Shown here piece after piece: positions 30,629-47,277 of a stretch of 64,000 nucleotides of DNA. Position 1 is the stretch's first letter; every line of letters starts with the position of its first letter. The stretch covers positions 96,472,001 through 96,536,000 of the forward strand of contig NC_091470.1 in NCBI RefSeq assembly GCF_036971445.1, read 5' to 3'. Under the pieces are notes generated by a model. It made no database searches. It was given only the letters and a program-made list of their open reading frames with translations, and was not told the DNA's origin. The translations under genes and the position numbers were made by a program. The stretch is from Narcine bancroftii. Its lineage: Eukaryota.

Positions 30629-32664
30629 TATTTAGTGAGCGTTTTCTGTAAAATCCCTGTCATGACCAACATTTACGAGCTACCTTAAACTGCCTTGAGA
30701 AGAGCCATTACATAAACTTCTGGATTATTTGAAGATAATTTTTAAGGAATAAGTTCCAGGATTTAGACAAAATGGCAAAGAACGAATGTTGATACATTTC
30801 CAGATTAGGGAGGTAACTTTCCAATTGCTTCCTTGGCCTTCTAGGGGATTAAGGTTCTGTGGAAAAGTCATTGGGGGAAATGATGTGTGTTGCTGGTAGG
30901 GAATAAATCTTTAGGGTGGTCATTGGGTTGCCAACAGGTGGTGGTTAGGTCCTGAATCATGTTAAACTTGTGAGTGCTGTGGAAGGTTACTCATCCATGC
31001 AAGAGAAAAGTGGGGAGTGAAAAGTGAAAGTCTGAAGATGCTGCGATTATAGTAAAAACCCACCGAAATGCTGGAAGAACTGAGCCAATCTCAGAATCCA
31101 TAGGAGGTAAAGATATATTACAGATGTTTCTGCCCGAGCCCTTAGAACCATAGAGTACTATAGCACAGTAACAGGCCCCTTCAGCCCTTTTAGTCTGTGG
31201 CGAAGCATTTTTTGTCTAGTCCCACTAATCTGCACCTGTCCATACCCTTCCCATCCATGTACCTGTCCAAATTCTTCTTGAATGTTAAAATTGAACCTCA
31301 TTTCCCCACCTCAATTGGCAGCTCATTCCGCACCCCCACTAATCTCTGTTTGAAGAAGTTCCCTTTCACTCTTAACCAATATCCTGTGGTTTGTATCTCA
31401 TCTACTTCTGAAAAAAGCCCATCTACATCATACCTCTATCAAATCTCCCCTCAATCTTCTATGCTGCAGGGAATGAAGTCCTAACTGTTTAACCTTACCC
31501 TGTAACTCAGTTCCTGAAGACTGGGCAACATTTCTGTACTCTTTCAATCTTATTGTTATCTTTCCTGCAGTTAGGTGACCAAATGGCACACAGTACTCCA
31601 AATTTGGCCTCACCAAGGTCATATATAACTTTACTATAACATCCTACTCAGTACTTTGATTTATAAAGGCCAAAAGGTCTTTTTAGAACCCTATCCAACT
31701 GTGATGCCACTTTCAGGGAATTCTGTATCTATTCCCAGGTCCCTCTGTTCTACCATTAGTGCCCTACCATTTACTGTGTATGTCCTTTCTTGGTTAGTCC
31801 TTCCAAAATGCAACGCCTCCCACTTGTCTGCATTAAATTCCATCTGCCATTTTCTGGCCCATTTTTCCAGCTGGTCCAGATCCTTCTGCAAGCTTTGAAA
31901 ACCTTCCTCATTGTCCACAATGCCTCCAATCTTAGTGTCATCTGCAAACATGCTGATCTAATTTCCCACATTATCATCCAGATCATTGATAACAGACAAC
32001 AATGATCCCAGCACTGATTTCTGAGGCACACAACTAATCACAGGCCTTTAGCCTGAAAAGCAATCATCCACCACTACTCTGACTTCTCTCATCCAGGCAT
32101 TGTCGAATCCAGTTCACAATGAATACCTAGCATTGGAACCTCCCTGACCAACTTTCCACGTGGGACCTCATTAAAGGCCTTACTAAAGTCCATGTAGATA
32201 ACATCCACAACCTTTTCTTCATCAACATTCCTGGTGACCTAAAAAAAACAATAAGATTGGTTAAGCACAACTTGCCATGCACAAAGTCATGGCTATCCAA
32301 ATAATTGTATATCTGATCTCTTGGAACACCTTCCAATAATTTTCCTACTATTGATGTCAGGCTCACTGGTTTGTAATTTCTACGGTTACTTTTAGAGACT
32401 TTTTTAAACAACGGAACAACGTGAGCTACCCTCCAATCCTCTGGCAGCACTCCAGTGGCCAAGGACATTTTAAATATTTCTGGCAGAGCCATGCAATTTC
32501 TACTCTAGCCTTCTTCAATGTCCGAGGGAATATCTTGTCAGGCCGTGGAGATTTATCCACCCTTATTTGCTTAAAGATAACAAGCACTTTCTCCTCTTTA
32601 ATCTATATGGGTTCCATGACCTCACTGCTTGTTTTCCTCACTTCCCTCAACACTGCCCTTTTCC

Positions 32665-35083
32665 GGAGGGGAGTCACGTGATGGAGTAGTGGCCGGACGG
32701 TGAACTCCAGCCCTCTCCAGAAAAGTCGGGAAAAACAAAGGAAAACACAAAGGCACAGAAATAAAAGTTACAGAAAAGTGAGTATAAAGGTGGAAAGAAG
32801 ATGGCGACAAAAAAAGAAAAATCGAAAGCAACGGTAAGAAAAGAGGAAGAGAAGACAAAGGAGGAAAAAGGTGAAGGCCTTACCTGTCCGAAGAGGCCCG
32901 CTGCGGAGAGAGAAACCCGCTCCCTCAGGTCGGTAAATAATGGACTACAAAAATGGCTCGCAGAGCCGAGTAAAAGTGCGCAACCGCGCATGCGCGATAC
33001 TGTGCGCATGCGCGATGCGAATGAAAAAAAACACACCGACGGGAGGGGGGACCAGCTGGGGAGTCGATCTCCACAGCCGGCAACGACAGCTGCAGAACAC
33101 CTGCAGCAAGAAGAGACCACAGAAGACAATAGAAACAAGAAAGAAGAGGAGGAAAGGGCAACAAAGAAACAACAGATGGTCAACCCAGAGGAAGAAGAAG
33201 AGGAAGAGGAAGAGTACAGGGAAATAGAAGAAGAAAAGAAAGGCAAGGTAAAGGATATACTTGCTCTTATTAAAGGATACATGGAGTCATTTAAAGAATG
33301 GCAAACACAGGAATTTAAGGATTTAAGAAAAAGAATAAACAACACAGAAGAGAAAATAAATAAAATGGAGATGACCTTAACAAAAATGGGAAAGAAAATG
33401 GACAAGATGGAAGAGCGGGCAGTAGCAGCAGAAATGGAGGTAGAAGACTTAAAAAAGAAATTGGAGGAATCTAATAAAAAAACTAAAGAGACACAAGAAC
33501 TACTAGCTCAAAAAATAGATACAATGGAAAACCATAACAGAAGAAATAACATAAAGATAGTGGGCCTTAAGGAAGATGAAGAAGGCAAGAATATGAGGGA
33601 GTTTATAAAAGAGTGGATCCCTAAGACCCTAGGATGTCCAGAACTACAGCAAGAAATGGAAATAGAAAGGGCACATAGAGTATTGGCCTCTAAACCACAA
33701 CCACAACAAAAACCAAGATCTATTGTAGTAAAATTCCTAAGATATACTACAAGAGAAAAGGTACTGGAGAAGACAATGGAAAAAGTAAGAGAGGGCAACA
33801 AACCACTGGAGTATAAAGGGCAAAAAATCTTCATTTATCCAGATATAAGTTTTGAACTCCTAAAGAAGAGAAAAGAGTTCAATACAGCAAAGGCGATTTT
33901 ATGGAAGAAAGGGTATAAATTTATACTAAAGCATCCAGCAGTATTGAAAATATTTATTCCAGGACAACAAAACAGACTATTCTCGGATCCAGAAGAAGCA
34001 TGAAAATTTGCAGAACAATTACAAAAATAGACTGAGGGAGGAAGACGGGTAATGAGAGTTAAAATGATCACGATTGATATGTATGTGGGTAAAGACAAAA
34101 ATAGACTGAGGGATGAAGACGGGTAATGAGAGTAAAAATGATCACGATTGATATGTATGCGGGTAAAGAGGTATAAGAGTGAATAGAGACAATGAGCATA
34201 CGTGAATATATCTGTACTTAGAGGAAAATATAGATAGTATAGACAAGAATTAATAAGGGAAGGTAATGGAATAGAGAGAATAAGGAGGGAATTAAAAGAG
34301 TGATCTTTGTGACATATGAAAAGTTAAATCTTTTCTGGGGGAGGCGGGGTGGGGGGAAATAGCGGTCACTGCAAAATCAGTTGACGCTTGCGAGTGGATT
34401 CGCAAATCCAAATGGAGAGGGGAGATGTGGTTGTCTGACAAGGGATAAAGGACAACTCAGGAGGTGAAGGGGAGATTGGGGATAAATAAGATAGAAATAG
34501 GAGAATAAGGAAAATGTTGGATGTTGTAGGAATGTTGTCTTATAAAGAGTTGAAAATAAGAAAACAGAAATGGAAAAGGAGGAAAGGTAATGATGGAAAA
34601 ACGGAAAGAGAAGATAAACAAAATATAAAAGGGCTACACTGAACTATATGTCTTTAAATATTAATGGAATACATAACCAAATTAAAAGGAAGAAACTACT
34701 AAATTTAAATGAATAAATGTATTCCATTAGAAAAAATAACATATAGGTTAAGAAATAATATTGAAATATTCGAACAAGTATAGGAGCCTTACATTAAATA
34801 CAATAGCGAAAACCTACCGGGGACAAACATTACCTAAGTTGATGGAAGGAGAAGGAAAGAAAAGAATGGACTCAGTAGAATTTCTGGTGTAATTTTGTTG
34901 AATGACAACATCGTCTGACTGGCTTAATGCAACCTAGATTGTATACCTAAAATGGATGAGAGGGGGGGGTGGGGGGTGGTTTGGTAGGAAAGGGGGGGGG
35001 AGAAAAAGTCACTGTATATGTGTGAAAAAGAAACAGTGTATATCATGGCTAATGTGATTTATGGTGTGAAAAATTAAAAAAAA
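32665..35083 (+). mobile_element. ORF1-only L1-derived retrotransposon (HAL1-like), copy A
   Basis: 16-bp TSD aacactgcccttttcc (32649-32664 and 35084-35099); 5' end ggaggggagtcacgtg; poly(A); ORF1 plus ORF2 scar. Confidence 0.9.
32801..34003 (+). CDS. L1 ORF1 protein (coiled coil, RRM, CTD), copy A, 7 aa short owing to CGA>TGA
   Basis: RRNNIKIVGLKE, EIERAHR, PRSIVVKFLRY, IFIYPDIS, ILKHPAVL are L1 ORF1p motifs. Confidence 0.88.
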   Translation: MATKKEKSKATVRKEEEKTKEEKGEGLTCPKRPAAERETRSLRSVNNGLQKWLAEPSKSAQPRMRDTVRMRDANEKKHTDGRGDQLGSRSPQPATTAAEHLQQEETTEDNRNKKEEEERATKKQQMVNPEEEEEEEEEYREIEEEKKGKVKDILALIKGYMESFKEWQTQEFKDLRKRINNTEEKINKMEMTLTKMGKKMDKMEERAVAAEMEVEDLKKKLEESNKKTKETQELLAQKIDTMENHNRRNNIKIVGLKEDEEGKNMREFIKEWIPKTLGCPELQQEMEIERAHRVLASKPQPQQKPRSIVVKFLRYTTREKVLEKTMEKVREGNKPLEYKGQKIFIYPDISFELLKKRKEFNTAKAILWKKGYKFILKHPAVLKIFIPGQQNRLFSDPEEA

Positions 35084-35994
35084 AACACTGCCCTTTTCCT
35101 GAGTGAATACAAATGAAAAAAAAATTTCAGATCTCCCCCATCGCTTTTGGCTTCATACAAAACTGACCACTCTGATCTTCAAGAGGACTATTTTTTGCTC
35201 TTAATATACATGTAGAAACCCTTAGAATTTTTCTTCAAAGAAAAATCTACCAAAGCAACCTCATGTCATTTTTGCCTTTCTGATTTCTTTTTTGAGGTTT
35301 TTCTTGCATTTTTTATACTCCTCATGAACCTCATTTGCTCCAAGTTGCCTGTACCTGTTATACACCTCTTCTTCCAAACTAGATTCCCAATATCCCTTGA
35401 AACCGAGGTTTCCTATGCCTTCTAACCTTGCCTTTAATCCTGATAGGAACACACAAACTCTGTACTCTCAAAATTTGAAGGTCCTTACACATTCTTGCCT
35501 GAAAACAATTTAACGCAATCCACATATTCTAGATCCTTTCTCATTTCCTCAAAATTAGCCTTTCTCCAATTTAGAATCTCAACCCAAGGCCCAGACCTGT
35601 CCTACTCCATACTTAACTTGAAACTAATGGCATTATGATCACTGCACCAAAAATGTTCCCCTATACATACTTCTGTCACCTGTCCTGTCTCGTTCCCAAA
35701 AAAGGAGATCCCGTATTGCATTCTCTCTATATTGATTTAGAAAACTTTCCTGATCGCATTTGACAAACTCCAAGACATCCAGCCCTTTTACAGTATGGGA
35801 GTCCCAGTCAATATGTGGATAATTAAAATTACCAACCATCACAGTCTTGTGTTTCCTGCAGATGTCTGCTATCTCTCTACAGATTTGCTCCTCCAATTTT
35901 CGTTAACTACCCATGTGACCTCAGTAGTTGAGCCCCCTGGTCTGTGCTGCCTGAGCACAGCTATGATATTTTCTCGTCAAGCAATGCCACTCTT

Positions 35995-38432
35995 GGAGGA
36001 GTCACGTGATGGAGTAGTGGCCGGACGGTGAACTCCAGCCCTCTCCAGAAAAGTCGGGAAAAACAAGAGAAAACACAAAGGCACAGAAATAAAAGTTACA
36101 GAAAAGTGAGTATAAAGGTGGAAAGAAGATGGCGACAAAAAAAGAAAAGTCGAAAGCAACGGTAAGAAGAGAGGAAGAGAAGACAAAGGAGGAAAAAGGT
36201 GAAGGCCTTACCTGTCCGAAGAGGCCCGCTGCGGAGAGAGAAACCCGCTCCCTCAGGTCGGTAAATAATGGACTACAAAAATGGCTCGCAGAGCCGAGTA
36301 AAAGTGCGCAACCGCGCATGCGCGATACTGTGCGCATGCGCGATGCGAATGAAAAAAAACACACCGACGGGAGGGGGGACCAGCTGGGGAGTCGATCTCC
36401 ACAGCCGGCAACGACAGCTGCAGAACACCTGCAGCAAGAAGAGACCACAGAAGACAACAGAAACAAGAAAGAAGAGGAGGAAAGGGCAACAAAGAAACAA
36501 CAGATGGCCAACCCAGAGGAAGAAGAAGAGGAAGAGTATGGTGAAATAGAAGAAGAAAAGAGAGGCAAGGTAAAGGATATACTTGCTCTTATTAGAGGAT
36601 ACATGGAATCATTTAAAGAATGGCAAACACAGGAATTTAAGGATTTAAGAAAAAGAATAAACAACACAGAAGAGAAAATAAATAAAATGGAGATGACCTT
36701 AACAGAAATGGGAAAGAAAATGGACAAGATGGAAGAGCGGGCAGTAGCAGCAGAAATGGAGGTAGAAGACTTAAAAAAGAAATTGGAGAAATCTAATAAA
36801 AAAACTAAAGAGACACAAGAACTACTAGCTCAAAAAATAGATACAATGGAAAACCATAACAGAAGAAATAACATAAAGATAGTGGGCCTTAAGGAAGATG
36901 AAGAAGGCAAGAATATGAGGGAGTTTATAAAAGAGTGGATCCCTAAGACCCTAGGATGTCCAGAACTACAGCAAGAATTGGAAATAGAAAGGGCACATAG
37001 AGTATTGGCCTCTAAACCACAACCACAACAAAAACCAAGATCTATTGTAGTAAAATTCCTAAGATATACTACAAGAGAAAAGGTACTGGAGAAGACAATG
37101 GAAAAAGTAAGAGAGGGCAACAAACCACTGGAGTATAAAGGGCAAAAAATCTTCATTTATCCAGATATAAGTTTTGAACTCCTAAAGAAGAGAAAAGAGT
37201 TCAATACAGCAAAGGCGATTTTATGGAAGAAAGGGTATAAATTTATACTAAAGCATCCAGCGGTATTGAAAATATTTATTCCAGGACAACAAAACAGACT
37301 ATTCTCGGATCCAGAAGAAGCACGAAAATTTGCAGAACAATTACAAAAATAGACTGAGGGAGGAAGACGAGTAATGAGAGTTAAGATGATCACAATTGAT
37401 ATGTATGTGGGTAAAGACAAAAATAGACTGAGGGATGAAGACGGGTAATGAGAGTAAAAATGATCACGATTGATATGTATGCGGGTAAAGAGGTATAAGA
37501 GTGAATAGAGACAAGGAGCATACGTGAATGTATCTGTACTTAGAGGAAAATATAGAGAGTATAGACAAGAATTAATAAGGGAAGGTAATGGAATAGAGAG
37601 AATAAGGAGGGAATTAAAAGAGTGACCTTTGTGACATATGAAAAGTGAAATCTTTTCTGGGGGAGGCGGGGTGGGGGGAAATAGCGGTCACTGCAAAATC
37701 AGTTGACGCTTGCGAGTGGATTCGCAAATCCAAATGGAGAGGGGAGATGTGGTTGTCCGACAAGGGATAAAGGACAACTCAGGAGGTGAATGGGAGATTG
37801 GGAATAAATAAGATAGAAATAGGAGAATAAGGAAAATGTTGGATGTTGTAGGAATGTTGTCTTATAAAGAGTTGAAAATAAGAAAACAGAAATGGAAAAG
37901 GAGGAAAGATAATGATGGAAAAACGGAAAGAGAAGATAAACAAAATATAAAAGGGCTACGCTGAACTATATGTCTTTAAATATTAATGGAATACATAACC
38001 AAATTAAAAGGAATAAACTACCAAATTTAAATGAATAAATGTATTCCATTAGAAAAAATAACATATTGGTTAAGAAATAATATTGAAATATTCGAACAAG
38101 TATAGGAGCCTTACATTAAATACAATAGCGAAAACCTACCGGGGACAAACATTACCTAAGTTGATGGAAGGAGAAGGAAAGAAAAGAATGGACTCAGTAG
38201 AATTTCTGGTGTAATTTTGTTGAATGACAACATTGTCTGACTGGATTAATGCAACCTAGATTGTATACCTAAAATGGATGAGAGGGGGGGTGGGGGGGTG
38301 GTTTGGGAGGAAAGGGGGGGGGGAGAAAAAGTCACTGTATATGTGTGAAAAAGAAATTGTGTATATCATGGCTAATGTGATTTATGGTGTGAAAAATAAA
38401 AAAAAATTAAAAAAATAAAAATAAAAAAAAAA
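35995..38432 (+). mobile_element. ORF1-only L1-derived retrotransposon (HAL1-like), copy B
   Basis: 16-bp TSD aagcaatgccactctt (35979-35994 and 38433-38448); 5' end ggaggagtcacgtg; long poly(A); near-identical to copy A. Confidence 0.9.
36129..37352 (+). CDS. L1 ORF1 protein, intact 407 aa, copy B
   Basis: Same ORF1p motifs as copy A; open to ...PEEARKFAEQLQK*. Confidence 0.9.
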   Translation: MATKKEKSKATVRREEEKTKEEKGEGLTCPKRPAAERETRSLRSVNNGLQKWLAEPSKSAQPRMRDTVRMRDANEKKHTDGRGDQLGSRSPQPATTAAEHLQQEETTEDNRNKKEEEERATKKQQMANPEEEEEEEYGEIEEEKRGKVKDILALIRGYMESFKEWQTQEFKDLRKRINNTEEKINKMEMTLTEMGKKMDKMEERAVAAEMEVEDLKKKLEKSNKKTKETQELLAQKIDTMENHNRRNNIKIVGLKEDEEGKNMREFIKEWIPKTLGCPELQQELEIERAHRVLASKPQPQQKPRSIVVKFLRYTTREKVLEKTMEKVREGNKPLEYKGQKIFIYPDISFELLKKRKEFNTAKAILWKKGYKFILKHPAVLKIFIPGQQNRLFSDPEEARKFAEQLQK

Positions 38433-39097
38433 AAGCAATGCCACTCTTCCCCCTTTCATCCCTCCCATTCTATCGCATCTAAAGCAACGGAAGGTCGGAA
38501 CATTGAACTGCCAGTCCTGCCCCTCCTGCAACCAAGTTTCACTAATGGCCACAATGTCATAATTGCATGTGCCAATCCACGCTCTAAGCTCATCTGCCTT
38601 TCCTACAACACTCCTTGCTTTGAAATAGATGCACTTTAGAAAATTTCCCATGTATAACCCGCTGACTTCTAATGGTGCATGCAATTTTCACATCATCTTT
38701 TTCCCTCCTCCACTCCTCTGTCTGTTCTGGCACTCTGGATCCCATCCCCCTGTAAATCTAGTTTAAACCCACTGGAGCAACACTAGCAAACCTTCCCTCA
38801 AGGACATTAGTCCCCCTCTAGTTCACTATCCCTGGAAGAGAGCCCACAGAACCTCACATTTGTCCCCTTAACTATGGAAAACTCTATCACTACAGCTCAC
38901 CTCCTCCTCCCTTCCCTTCTTAACCACATGACCAGACTCCGTGCCAGAGACCTGCAAGGAGGTGGCTTGTCCCTAGTAGATACCAACTCCCCTTACCCCA
39001 AGCAATATCCAAAATGGTATACTTGTTATTAAGGGGAACGGCCATAGGGGTGCCTGCCTGTTCTCTTTCCCTCTCCTGTCACCCATTGGTTGACATA

Positions 39098-39478: not shown

Positions 39479-39685
39479 GAAGTCGTCAGGGATATGAAGT
39501 CGTCAGGGATATGAAGTCGTCAGGGATATGAAGTCGTCAGGGATATGAAGTCGTCAGGGATTATGAAGTCGTCAGGGATTATGAAGTCGTCAGGGATTAT
39601 GAAGTCGTCAGGGATTATGAAGTCGTCAGGGATTATGAAGTCGTCAGGGATTATGAAGTCGTCAGGGGTATGAAGTCATCAGGGA
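39479..39685. repeat. 17/18-bp tandem repeat, ~12 units
   Basis: gaagtcgtcagggatat followed by variant gaagtcgtcagggattat. Confidence 0.95.
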
Positions 39686-43970: not shown

Positions 43971-44077
43971 GCTGTTGCTGTCCAGTGGTTCTAGGGGCCC
44001 ACAGTTTGTGCCTGTTCCCGACTGTGCTTTCCTCTCCCAGTGCCAGAGTTAACACAGTCTCCTCAAGGCTAAAGAAG
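43971..44077 (+). repeat. 107-bp direct repeat, partner at 45549-45655
   Basis: One mismatch seen between the two copies. Confidence 0.95.
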
Positions 44078-44277
44078 GGGGTCAGACCACACTGGGGCTG
44101 CTCTGCTTCTGGATTAGTCATGCTGTTTCACTACAGTAACAATGCTGGAATCTACCTGACAACATGGAGGCAGTGGTAGTGCCTTCGGTCGCCAGCCTGT
44201 ATGGTGTGGTGTGAGGGAGGTCAAGGGGAGCGAAACTGAAAGTTAGAGGGCTTAACCCCACCTTCCATCTCTTGCAG

Positions 44278-44479
44278 GGCACATCGAGTGTGTCAAGCAG
44301 TCCTACCTCCAGCCCGAAGACGAAGAGCTCGTCCTTGTCACCTGCCCAGAAGGCCAGTCTGATCACAGCCACTGCCACTGCTGCCAGCCAATCCCCCAGC
44401 CTTTCCGCCCAGTTCTCCCACATCCTGAAGCAGCACATGCAGAAGACGGGGACAGTGTTAACTCAGAAACAAGCTCAAG
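44278..44479 (+). CDS. KANSL3: KANSL3 coding exon 13
   Basis: [16 protein letters not shown]...[18 protein letters not shown]; ttgcag| and |gtaaac. Confidence 0.93.
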
Positions 44480-45440
44480 GTAAACGCACCCGTTTCTTCC
44501 CCAAATTAGGGCAGCCATCGATCAGTAAATAGCTGCGCATTTACAACAGGTTGCAGCTCCCACAATCTGGCACATTTTAATCCATACTACCAACCTTGAT
44601 TAATGAATATTCTCGATAAGATCTATAATCAACCAAGGTTTGTACTAATCTGTAGCCCACCAGATAATATTTGCAATTTCAGCTGACATTTCCAACAGGA
44701 ACATTTTGTGCTTCGAACAGTTCTGAGAACTCTTGTGTATCCCAGGGAATGCCTGTACTTAAAACATAAATACAGTAAAACACCTGGTATCGGCACCTCT
44801 GGGGACTGACTGGTGGGTGCTGGATAGGTGTGTTTTCCGGTTGCCTGAGAATGCATGTTGCATGAGTGGTGAACTAATGGCGAGGCTCACCAAGTTTAAG
44901 CGTGTACTTTTTACCTACCAGTATTTATTTTCCTCTTTTTTTTTTGCTGGTTGCTTAAATTCCAGATAACAGGGGTGTTACTGTAGTTCTACCACTTTGA
45001 AAAGGTGAATGGGGACATTTTCTGTGTTCTGGCTCCAGTCAGGTTTCATAGTGCTGGACCAGGACATTTCAATATGTGTAAACAAACTGGCTGTCATTAA
45101 TCAGGGTTTGCAATGGTGATGGATGAAGGTCTGGCTCTGTGCTTACACGACTTGTGTGTGATTGAACAGATTCACTGGCTTTAGAAATGTCTGTGCTGGT
45201 TATTTTTTTTTAACTGCCTTTTATTGTCAAGTTAACCTTGGATTCTAGGGCAGTTGTCTTCTTGGGCTTGCACCCTGGACGTTATGCTGTGTCGGATTTC
45301 CCCAGACAAGCGGCTCAACCTGAATTGGTTCACTGCTGGCAAATCCTGTTTAATTGTGGAGGAATAAATCCGTGTCTAAAACTTGTGTGGCTTGCACTGC
45401 ATGCCTTGTGATCTGTTGATTTTTTTGTGATTGATTTCAG

Positions 45441-45518
45441 CTCAGTTTGCTGCTTTCCTAAAGCAGAATATGTTGGTGAAGAAGAATTCAAGTCCATCCA
45501 ACTCATCCTGTGTCTTTG
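45441..45518 (+). CDS. KANSL3: KANSL3 coding exon 14 (78 nt, symmetric phase 1/1)
   Basis: AQFAAFLKQNMLVKKNSSPSNSSCVF (human AQFAAFLKQNMLVRK...SCLF). Confidence 0.92.
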
Positions 45519-45945
45519 GTACGGGCGTGTGCATGAGCTCTCTCATCCGCTGTTGCTGTCCAGTGGTTCTAGGGGCCCACAGTTTGTGCCTGTTCCCGAC
45601 TGTGCTTTCCTCTCCCAGTGCCAGAGTTAACACAGTCTCCTCAAAGCTAAAGAAGAACTTGCCTCATAGTACTTCATGCTGTTTGAAAGTGCAGTCAAAC
45701 TTGGGTCTGAAAGTACAAAGGTATTAGGGCAAAATTGGCTGAAGTGGTCTGGGAAGGCAACTTAAAAGATAAGATTATAATCAAACAGTGGTAGACATTT
45801 AAGGAAAAATCAAAGCTCCCCACCAGAAGAAAGCCCCAACCTGGTTGACGAAATAAAATTCCCAGTATCAAGCAATTGCAGGGATTGGAAGATGCCAGAT
45901 ATGCAAATTTTCTGGTTGCTTGAGATTCACTCTTACAATGTTTAA

Positions 45946-46320
45946 CTGTGGTTCTCAACCTTTTTCTTTCCACTCTCACACCATTTTAAGTAATCCCTCT
46001 ACCATCAATGCTCTGTGATTAGTAAGGGATTGCTTAAGGTGGGATGTGAGTGGGAAGGGAAGGTTGAAAACCACTGCTGTAGACCCATTTGTTACTGAAA
46101 TATTTTGCTTGAGAAAAATGGTCATTGGCCCATTTCCTTTGGAGTTCTGAAACCATGCACATAACGAGTCAATGAGGGACAATTAAAACAGTGGGTTTCA
46201 AACTTTTTCTTTCCACCCATATCCCACCTTAAGCAAACCCTTACTAATCACAGAGCACCGCTGGCAGAGGGATTACTTAAAGTGGTGTGTGAGTGGAAAG
46301 AAAAAGGTTGAGAACCACTG
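45946..46320. mobile_element. Composite hAT MITE: two palindromic units (45946-46077, 46189-46320) around a ~110-bp spacer
   Basis: Same TIR family as 19333-19487. Confidence 0.75.
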
Positions 46321-47277
46321 GTTAACTAATGTACCAGCATTAAGAATAAACAGTTTAAAACAGTGCAAAATGTAAAGTGATTTTTTAAAAAGCCCTTAAT
46401 TAGTAATTAGAATCATAGCCCCATAATTCAATACGGCACAGGAATTGCCCTTTGGTCTTTCTAGTCTGTGCCAAACTTATTTATTTCCTCAATTTTTTTT
46501 GCTGGTTGCTTGGAGTTGCTGGTTGCTTGAATTCCGGATAACGAGGATTTTACTGTTTTAGATTAAAGGGGAATAATGAGTAGTGAGTGGGCAACAGTGT
46601 GGCCAGTCATTTATAAATATTGCAAAAATGCAACCCTAAAGACATCTGTGGAAAAACCAGAACTGTTGAGCATTTTGAAATGCTGACAAATTAGAAAAGG
46701 CTGATTCTCAAAAAGGACCTGGCCTTCCTGGTCCAGGTAACTGAAGGCTAACTGGCAGGTGCAGCAGGCGAGAGACGAGCACAAGGAGATTAACTGCCTA
46801 CGATGATGTGAGTCTTGGTGAGACCATGCCTGGGGTGCATTGGGCTGTTTGGTCTCCTTTCCCGTTTGGTTCAGGAATAGCGTGTTTGTCAAAGAAAGAA
46901 GCTACTTAGCACTGAAAGGAGGAGACATTTATCTGCGGTCAGGGTGGTGAATCTGGGATCCTGCACCCCTGGGAGTGCAGAGGCTCAGTCGTTATTTGCA
47001 TTCAATGCAGAGGTTGATAGATTCAAGATATTGATGGAATAAAGAGGCATGGAGGTTGGCCAAGAAAATGGTGGTGAGGCAGAAGGTCGCACTGTGGTTG
47101 GAAGACTGAAGAGTCACCTTCTTGTTCTGTTCTTGATGCATAAGGTTTTAAAAGAGCAGAGGTAGGTAAGTGAGATAAGGATTACCCTCTCAGAACAGGA
47201 TGCATGGGGGTGGGAGGGAATCTGACCTGATCTCTATTGTTGTAATTTTGATTGTGTAGTCTTTGGATCTTCTACAG

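Follow-up and report, generated by a model that had tools for sequence, protein, structure and literature searches.

An ORF1-only L1 derivative of roughly 2,900 copies in the ray Narcine bancroftii, and the case for a borrowed ORF2 protein

Two nearly identical 2.4-kb elements, A and B, lie 0.9 kb apart in a 64,000-nucleotide stretch of the Narcine bancroftii genome (NCBI RefSeq assembly GCF_036971445.1, contig NC_091470.1, positions 96,472,001 to 96,536,000 of the forward strand; hereafter the window, numbered from its first letter). Each carries open reading frame 1 (ORF1) of an L1 retrotransposon, neither encodes a reverse transcriptase (RT), and of ORF2 only short remnants are left. How did such elements arise, and how do they move? 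We conclude that A and B are separate insertions of an ORF1-only L1 derivative of about 2,900 copies, founded by a single 3,590-bp deletion in ORF2 of an L1 that is still intact in the genome, and likely propagated by a coat of its own ORF1 protein (ORF1p) and by ORF2 protein (ORF2p) borrowed from that parent. Below, HAL (half-L1) denotes the ORF1-only, ORF2-deleted elements of the A/B family and parent denotes the 6.0-kb L1.

Copies A and B were 98.06% identical across 2,416 nt (41 substitutions), and the likeness ended at the element borders. Their parts, and the 16-bp target-site duplications (TSDs) that flank them, are as follows.

32649..32664, plus strand: left TSD of copy A, 16 bp, AACACTGCCCTTTTCC
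32665..35083, plus strand: half-L1 copy A, from the 5' end through the poly(A)
32801..34003, plus strand: ORF1 of copy A, 400 aa, with a late stop (CGA>TGA) at 34001, a CpG site
32985..33014, strand not applicable: palindrome within ORF1 of A that contains two GCGCATGCGC motifs; a family-wide hotspot of deletion and loop inversion
34004..34647, plus strand: spacer between ORF1 and ORF2 in A, including a 74-bp tandem duplication
34021-34169: the 74-bp tandem duplication of A (units from 34021 and 34095)
34648..34706, plus strand: N-terminal ORF2 remnant of A, ~20 codons from the start of the endonuclease; deletion junction 3' of 34706
34707..34837, plus strand: C-terminal ORF2 remnant of A, not in frame and bearing the inherited stop TGG>TAG
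35084..35099, plus strand: right TSD of copy A, 16 bp, AACACTGCCCTTTTCC
35979..35994, plus strand: left TSD of copy B, 16 bp, AAGCAATGCCACTCTT
35995..38432, plus strand: half-L1 copy B, from the 5' end through the poly(A)
36002, plus strand: TCACGTGA, within the 5' untranslated region of copy B (~135 nt)
36129..37352, plus strand: intact ORF1 of copy B (407 aa), alignable with human L1 ORF1p at residues 195-402
36313..36342, strand not applicable: palindrome within ORF1 of B
37343-37491: the 74-bp tandem duplication of B
37970..38028, plus strand: N-terminal ORF2 remnant of B; junction 3' of 38028, with 3,590 bp of ORF2 gone relative to parent loci L092-L094
38029..38159, plus strand: C-terminal ORF2 remnant of B
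38433..38448, plus strand: right TSD of copy B, 16 bp, AAGCAATGCCACTCTT

The first-pass annotation, made from the letters of the window alone, had described two young, separately inserted copies with a ~400-aa ORF1 and no RT. The separateness was borne out by the differing TSDs, by flanks that share no similarity and by the assignment of A and B to different subfamilies. Local duplication or misassembly, which the 0.9-kb spacing might bring to mind, is practically negligible in the face of these three observations and of the thousands of dispersed copies described below. The protein description held (407 aa in B, 400 aa in A owing to the CGA>TGA change), and to it must be added the ORF2 remnants, namely ~20 N-terminal codons that run into a stop two codons past the junction and ~43 C-terminal codons that are out of frame. 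The label of youth fits the recent activity of the family, seen in near-identical copies elsewhere; A itself belongs to an older subfamily than B. The 74-bp tandem duplication begins in the final ORF1 codons and was reduced to a single unit in 5 of 70 HAL copies.

The unit is dispersed and mobile. A DNA search of the genome with B returned 3,150 candidates; each of the 40 that were scored spanned the full length, at no less than 99%. An exact 35-mer across the deletion junction was found 2,852 times; exact-match counts with 35-mers are lower bounds. The family comprises roughly 2,900 copies. The count of full-length copies with distinct TSDs and a common ORF2 junction, proposed at first pass, thus gave a large family, and the possibility that only two copies exist genome-wide was dismissed. 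The junction was present in every match fetched (30/30 first and 40/40 later). Among the 27 of 30 loci that were processed, a set that includes B and is biased toward B-like copies, 26 carried a 407-aa ORF1, and each locus had different flanks. Of the 40 later junction copies, 37 carried the 5' motif and one more aligned from base 6, and an ORF1 of 398-412 aa was retained in 17. Truncation at the 5' end is uncommon, the end being reached by 38 of these 40 copies (L191-L230); among the parent-type loci L091-L110, a hand-picked and biased set, it was reached by 13 of 20. Recent activity, as first proposed, is evident from near-identical HAL copies at different loci, such as L119 and L147, which differ at 0 of 2,030 sites and have different TSDs. 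In the short-read runs of organisms B and C, contigs crossed the junction with only 24-30 letters per side (below the 31-letter rule for bridging) and are a hint only, and none of the short-read contigs listed for organism D crosses it. No RNA run is among the sequencing runs listed as holding the element, which says nothing either way about expression. No empty-site joint for copy B occurs among the short-read joints listed.

An autonomous partner was found in the same genome. Parent copies L093 and L094 are 6.0 kb long and bear TSDs; their ORF1 encodes 406/407 aa and their ORF2 frame stays open over 1,269 codons. Parent ORF2 contains endonuclease and RT domains and a weak zf-RVT match. Origin from a local L1 and a ~6-kb partner, both suggested at first pass, were confirmed. 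Against L092-L094, exactly 3,590 bp of ORF2 are missing from HAL, and the breakpoint shows 1 bp of microhomology. The deletion may have arisen by a template jump, or by a DNA deletion at this microhomology, within ORF2 of the 6-kb L1.

Splicing would be another route to an internally deleted L1. Spliced integrated retrotransposed elements (SpIREs) are known from human L1, where they are generally dead on arrival (PMC5860796), and the short elements here could in principle be repeated spliced RNAs of the 6-kb L1, each inserted once. An AG directly precedes the 3' breakpoint in the parent, as such a history would have it. The deleted piece starts with AC or CT, not GT, so the junction is not GT-AG; read in antisense, it offers an acceptor-like tract and no donor. 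In addition, 66 sites distinguish HAL from the young parent by HAL-specific alleles, and HAL copies group in a clade apart, hence they descend from each other. A splicing origin was rejected on the missing GT donor and the inherited HAL-specific variants, and repeated dead-on-arrival insertion is accordingly very improbable.

Parent copies were counted with further 35-mers, and sampling was limited to elements that contain them. HAL 3' sequence preceded by intact ORF2 occurred 10,186 times, older subfamilies included, and a 5' 35-mer common to HAL and parent occurred 4,824 times. The first 83 matches of the latter were tallied as 28 HAL, 51 parent-type and 4 fragments or other. Both ORFs were open in 12 of the 83 (L093, L094, L125, L136, L151-L153, L155, L161, L180, L183 and L188), and an ORF1 of 403-409 aa was present in 13 of the 28 HAL; in this sample, then, HAL and parent copies able to encode their proteins occur at about the same frequency. 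The tally suggests hundreds of full-length two-ORF L1 copies genome-wide.

ORF2 has been deleted more than once. A second, independent ORF2-deletion family that keeps ORF1 was found at L189, L190 and L231-L242 (G000:C1:28092405 and 53 other places). Its deletion is in frame and leaves a mini-ORF2 of ~186 codons. Eight of its 54 exact junction matches lie within one tandem array (C1:384.07-384.19 Mb). The family looks older and is probably extinct, because its dispersed copies are 94-99% alike.

Descent was traced in separate trees. Left out of the 88-sequence tree were L116, L118, L121, L129, L163, L177, L181, L184, L186 and L190 (fragments, insertions or no junction motif); the 121-sequence alignment does not include L101, L103, L107 and L110. 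In the 5' tree, which is a ladder, HAL splits off once (support 0.95), L148 excepted; this shape suggests a ladder-like history of the parent L1 in a non-mammal. All 73 HAL formed a single clade in the tree of the spacer and ORF2 start (support 0.90), as did all included HAL copies in the 3' tree (support 0.76); the tree of the RRM-CTD segment was unresolved. The nesting of HAL in the local L1 tree implies an origin separate from that of the named mammalian HAL1. Tips of both lineages lie 0.05-0.06 from their split, and HAL-parent divergence is 5.4-5.6% (B and the young parent L161 differ at 114 of 2,030 sites). Divergence from the nearest neighbour was below 0.3% for 11 of 63 HAL and 7 of 43 parent copies, and the young parents L161 and L188 differ at 3 of 2,037 sites. 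The HAL and parent lineages have evolved in parallel to the present, both with near-identical young copies.

The insertion sites of the two classes are alike. A TSD of at least 10 bp was found for 54 of 63 HAL and 37 of 43 parent copies, with a median of 16 bp for each class, and in both the TSD mostly begins with AA and is preceded by TC or TT. The same TSD length and target preference would be expected if one ORF2p inserts both; from these and from the overlapping activity of the two lineages we infer that HAL is mobilised by the ORF2p of the parent in trans. HAL would be transcribed from the retained internal 5' promoter, its ORF1p would bind its own RNA in cis, and parent ORF2p would engage the poly(A) tail and perform target-primed reverse transcription. 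The lineages have also exchanged sequence, as seen in single mosaic copies: L168, a parent, agrees with HAL at 12 of 13 successive diagnostic positions of ORF1; L148 joins an old parent 5' part to a HAL 3' part; and the spacer of L113 includes three parent alleles. Occasional template switching or gene conversion could account for these copies.

The part of the first-pass annotation that fared unevenly was the supply of ORF1p in cis, which the absence of inherited knock-outs favours and dN/dS among copies does not, being indistinguishable from neutral. Knock-outs were counted in ORF1 outside the palindrome among 70 HAL copies, a set that omits L148 (mosaic), L227 (which probably duplicates L226) and one copy whose 3' end was not recovered. 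Fifteen frameshifts and 8 stop sites were found, all private and none clade-defining. Scaled by the ratio of 46 shared to 146 private substitutions, 7.3 inherited knock-outs were expected and 0 were seen (P=0.0007); without homopolymer indels the expectation was 5.7 (P=0.003). The sole inherited indel outside the palindrome is 6 bp long and in frame. Across a lineage depth of ~0.05 substitutions per site, the whole 407-codon frame remained open in two young subfamilies. The ORF2 remnant, unlike ORF1, carries inherited damage: the TGG>TAG stop has 2,659 matches, the oldest HAL (L111, L164, L191) still having TGG at that site, and a frameshift is common to 8 of the 70 copies. Deletions that keep ORF1 were amplified (2,852 and 54 matches), whereas two ORF1-damaging deletions are single-copy.

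Several results weigh on the other side. With stops alone, only 2.5 inherited knock-outs were expected (P=0.08). Of the 15 frameshifts, 5 are in homopolymers and are possibly assembly errors. The CpG stop at codon 399 is present in 3 of 70 copies that are not sisters (A, L191 and L203). The comparison of two deletions with two is tiny, and the ORF1-damaging deletions may postdate insertion. Position-ordered samples cover the initial 120 Mb of a single contig. Nonsynonymous and synonymous changes (N/S) were counted by parsimony on the FastTree topology, and were neutral-like in HAL ORF1 (internal branches 42/19, terminal branches 133/61, p=1.0); the HAL RRM-CTD likewise gave no difference (6/1 versus 46/26), and its constraint relative to the spacer had p=0.085. 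The internal/terminal test has little power here, because the young parent lineage also fails it (39/17 versus 56/26); the older parent ladder alone gave a difference (p=0.043). Many identical changes on both lineages in codons 117-187 point to a mosaic history or to tree error and weaken the test further.

The neutral-like ratios would sit well with a family of the same origin in which ORF1p is not needed in cis, the region being kept for promoter or RNA signals, or open by chance in the source copies, and both proteins being supplied by the parent. The 5' part of ORF1 gives this some colour: its first ~320 nt are CpG-rich (observed/expected 1.07, versus 0.19 in the remainder) and contain the two GCGCATGCGC motifs. 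We regard it as unlikely, since promoter or chance retention is set against a whole frame open through the depth given above in two young subfamilies, a single inherited indel that is in frame, and 0 inherited knock-outs where 5.7-7.3 were expected. A need for ORF1 in cis is supported, not proven.

The palindrome occupies ORF1 codons 62-71, and its loop was found in both orientations in HAL and parent lineages alike. Deletions of at least 12 nt, mostly 31 or 18 nt, were present there in 23 of 73 HAL and 22 of 47 parent copies; the 31-nt deletion is a frameshift. They become more frequent as terminal branches lengthen: 4 of 34 copies are affected in the youngest bin and 14 of 15 in the oldest (p=7e-5 and 7e-7). 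Deleted and intact copies are interspersed in the tree, which therefore reads as recurrent loss after insertion. Short-read contigs contained matching 32-nt skips at the palindrome, and one of the runs (X1) is possibly the assembly's own sample. The GCGCATGCGC motif presumably resembles NRF1 sites, which would give it a promoter role. A search by title and abstract found no ORF1 palindrome hotspot in the literature, most subscription papers being outside its reach. A wider picture can be offered tentatively, and it is possible rather than probable: a mammal-like, ladder-evolving and highly active L1 would share the genome with an ORF1-only parasite roughly equal to it in number of protein-competent copies, with ORF1 segments swapped between them and, in both, a promoter-like palindrome within ORF1 whose recurrent frameshifting deletion retires ageing copies. 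If so, the HAL/parent pair would be a natural experiment on the role of ORF1p in cis.

The family is a HAL1-type element: it encodes ORF1p without ORF2p, derives from L1 by loss of ORF2, and moves as a unit, with dispersed copies, a common junction, poly(A) and TSDs. The HAL1 lifestyle is already known, from mammals; mammalian HAL1 families were reportedly treated by Smit in 1999 and by Bao and Jurka in 2010. As ORF1-only L1 derivatives, mammalian HAL1 elements resemble the present family and arose several times (PMC5753468, PMC3627910, PMC13756887); unlike in the mammalian cases as described there, an exact breakpoint, a parent ladder, a second deletion family and mosaics are visible here in one genome. 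In the guinea pig, long-kept ORF1 coding capacity was read as a need for ORF1p in cis and ORF2p in trans (PMC3627910). The nearest published precedent for a young, propagating HAL1 near an active parent is rat RNHAL1, an L1-derived, ORF1-only family of ~7,500 copies that is thought to be still propagating and whose 5' part is 98% identical to an active L1 (PMC2241872). Both families have an ORF2 deletion from L1, ORF1 only, thousands of copies and closeness to an active parent; the present one differs in its ray host, its total length of 2.4 kb and its 94-95% identity to the young parent. Because HAL here descends from a fish-type L1, its origin would be independent of rat RNHAL1.

Beyond L1, HeT-A (Jockey clade) and Ag-Sponge (CR1 clade) are described as bipartite non-autonomous long interspersed elements (LINEs) with ORF1 present (PMC5786205). 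Like HAL, they encode only an ORF1/Gag-like protein and need an autonomous partner; unlike them (other LINE clades, insect hosts), the element here inserts at dispersed sites. With SpIREs HAL shares internal deletion with intact ends, and differs in its junction and in having founded a propagating lineage with its own clade and subfamilies. Membership in the ORF-less bipartite LINE derivatives (RIME, Bov-A type) was rejected on the 398-412-aa ORF1 in 17 of 40 junction copies.

A literature search by title and abstract, with most subscription papers (including Bao and Jurka 2010) outside its reach, found no non-mammalian or chondrichthyan L1-derived HAL1. Within that reach, the family extends L1-derived HAL1 elements beyond mammals. 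It is also an unusually complete case: the breakpoint is exact, the parent is intact, the copies number in the thousands and are mostly full length, there are two independent origins, and natural copies without ORF1 provide controls. Natural copies differing by one deletion allow direct tests of what ORF1p does and of what cis preference rests on. The parent deserves attention in its own right. A 2016 survey reported L1 in Chondrichthyes as fragments only (PMC5203782), and non-mammalian L1 families have been described as low-copy (PMC5381506). Here, of the 4,824 matches to the 5' 35-mer, 83 were sampled and 12 of these have both ORFs open.

ORF1p of the family matches human L1 ORF1p (PDB 2ykp) at residues 195-402 (E=5e-13); its match to Pfam Transposase_22 (E=0.025) is under the curated cut-off. 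The closest relatives are proteins of Narcine bancroftii (93%) and Hemitrygon akajei (46%), with L1 proteins of bony fish ranking next, in agreement with the cartilaginous-fish host named at first pass. Shared changes of HAL ORF1 cluster in codons 149-245 (18, against 24 private) compared with the RRM-CTD (4 against 47; p=1.4e-4). Between B and L161, ORF1 residues differ at 25/148, 11/97 and 7/162 in three regions. Three database entries (P0002, P0003 and P0004), annotated as FAM122B, GrpE-like and tRNA-specific adenosine deaminase 1, also match ORF1p; these entries may be gene models that have absorbed L1 ORF1 sequence.

Both insertions lie in one older antisense LINE, presumably CR1-like, whose endonuclease-like and RT-like pieces continue across them. 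Its ORF2, on the minus strand, is split into window positions 31691-32492, 35100-35994 and 38449-38700. Elsewhere in the window, minisatellites were found at 2538-2851 and 39479-39685 (units of ~36 bp and 17-18 bp). The interval 43971-46325 contains a direct repeat of 107 bp (99%, at 43971 and 45549) and an inverted repeat of 137 bp (88%, 45942-46325).

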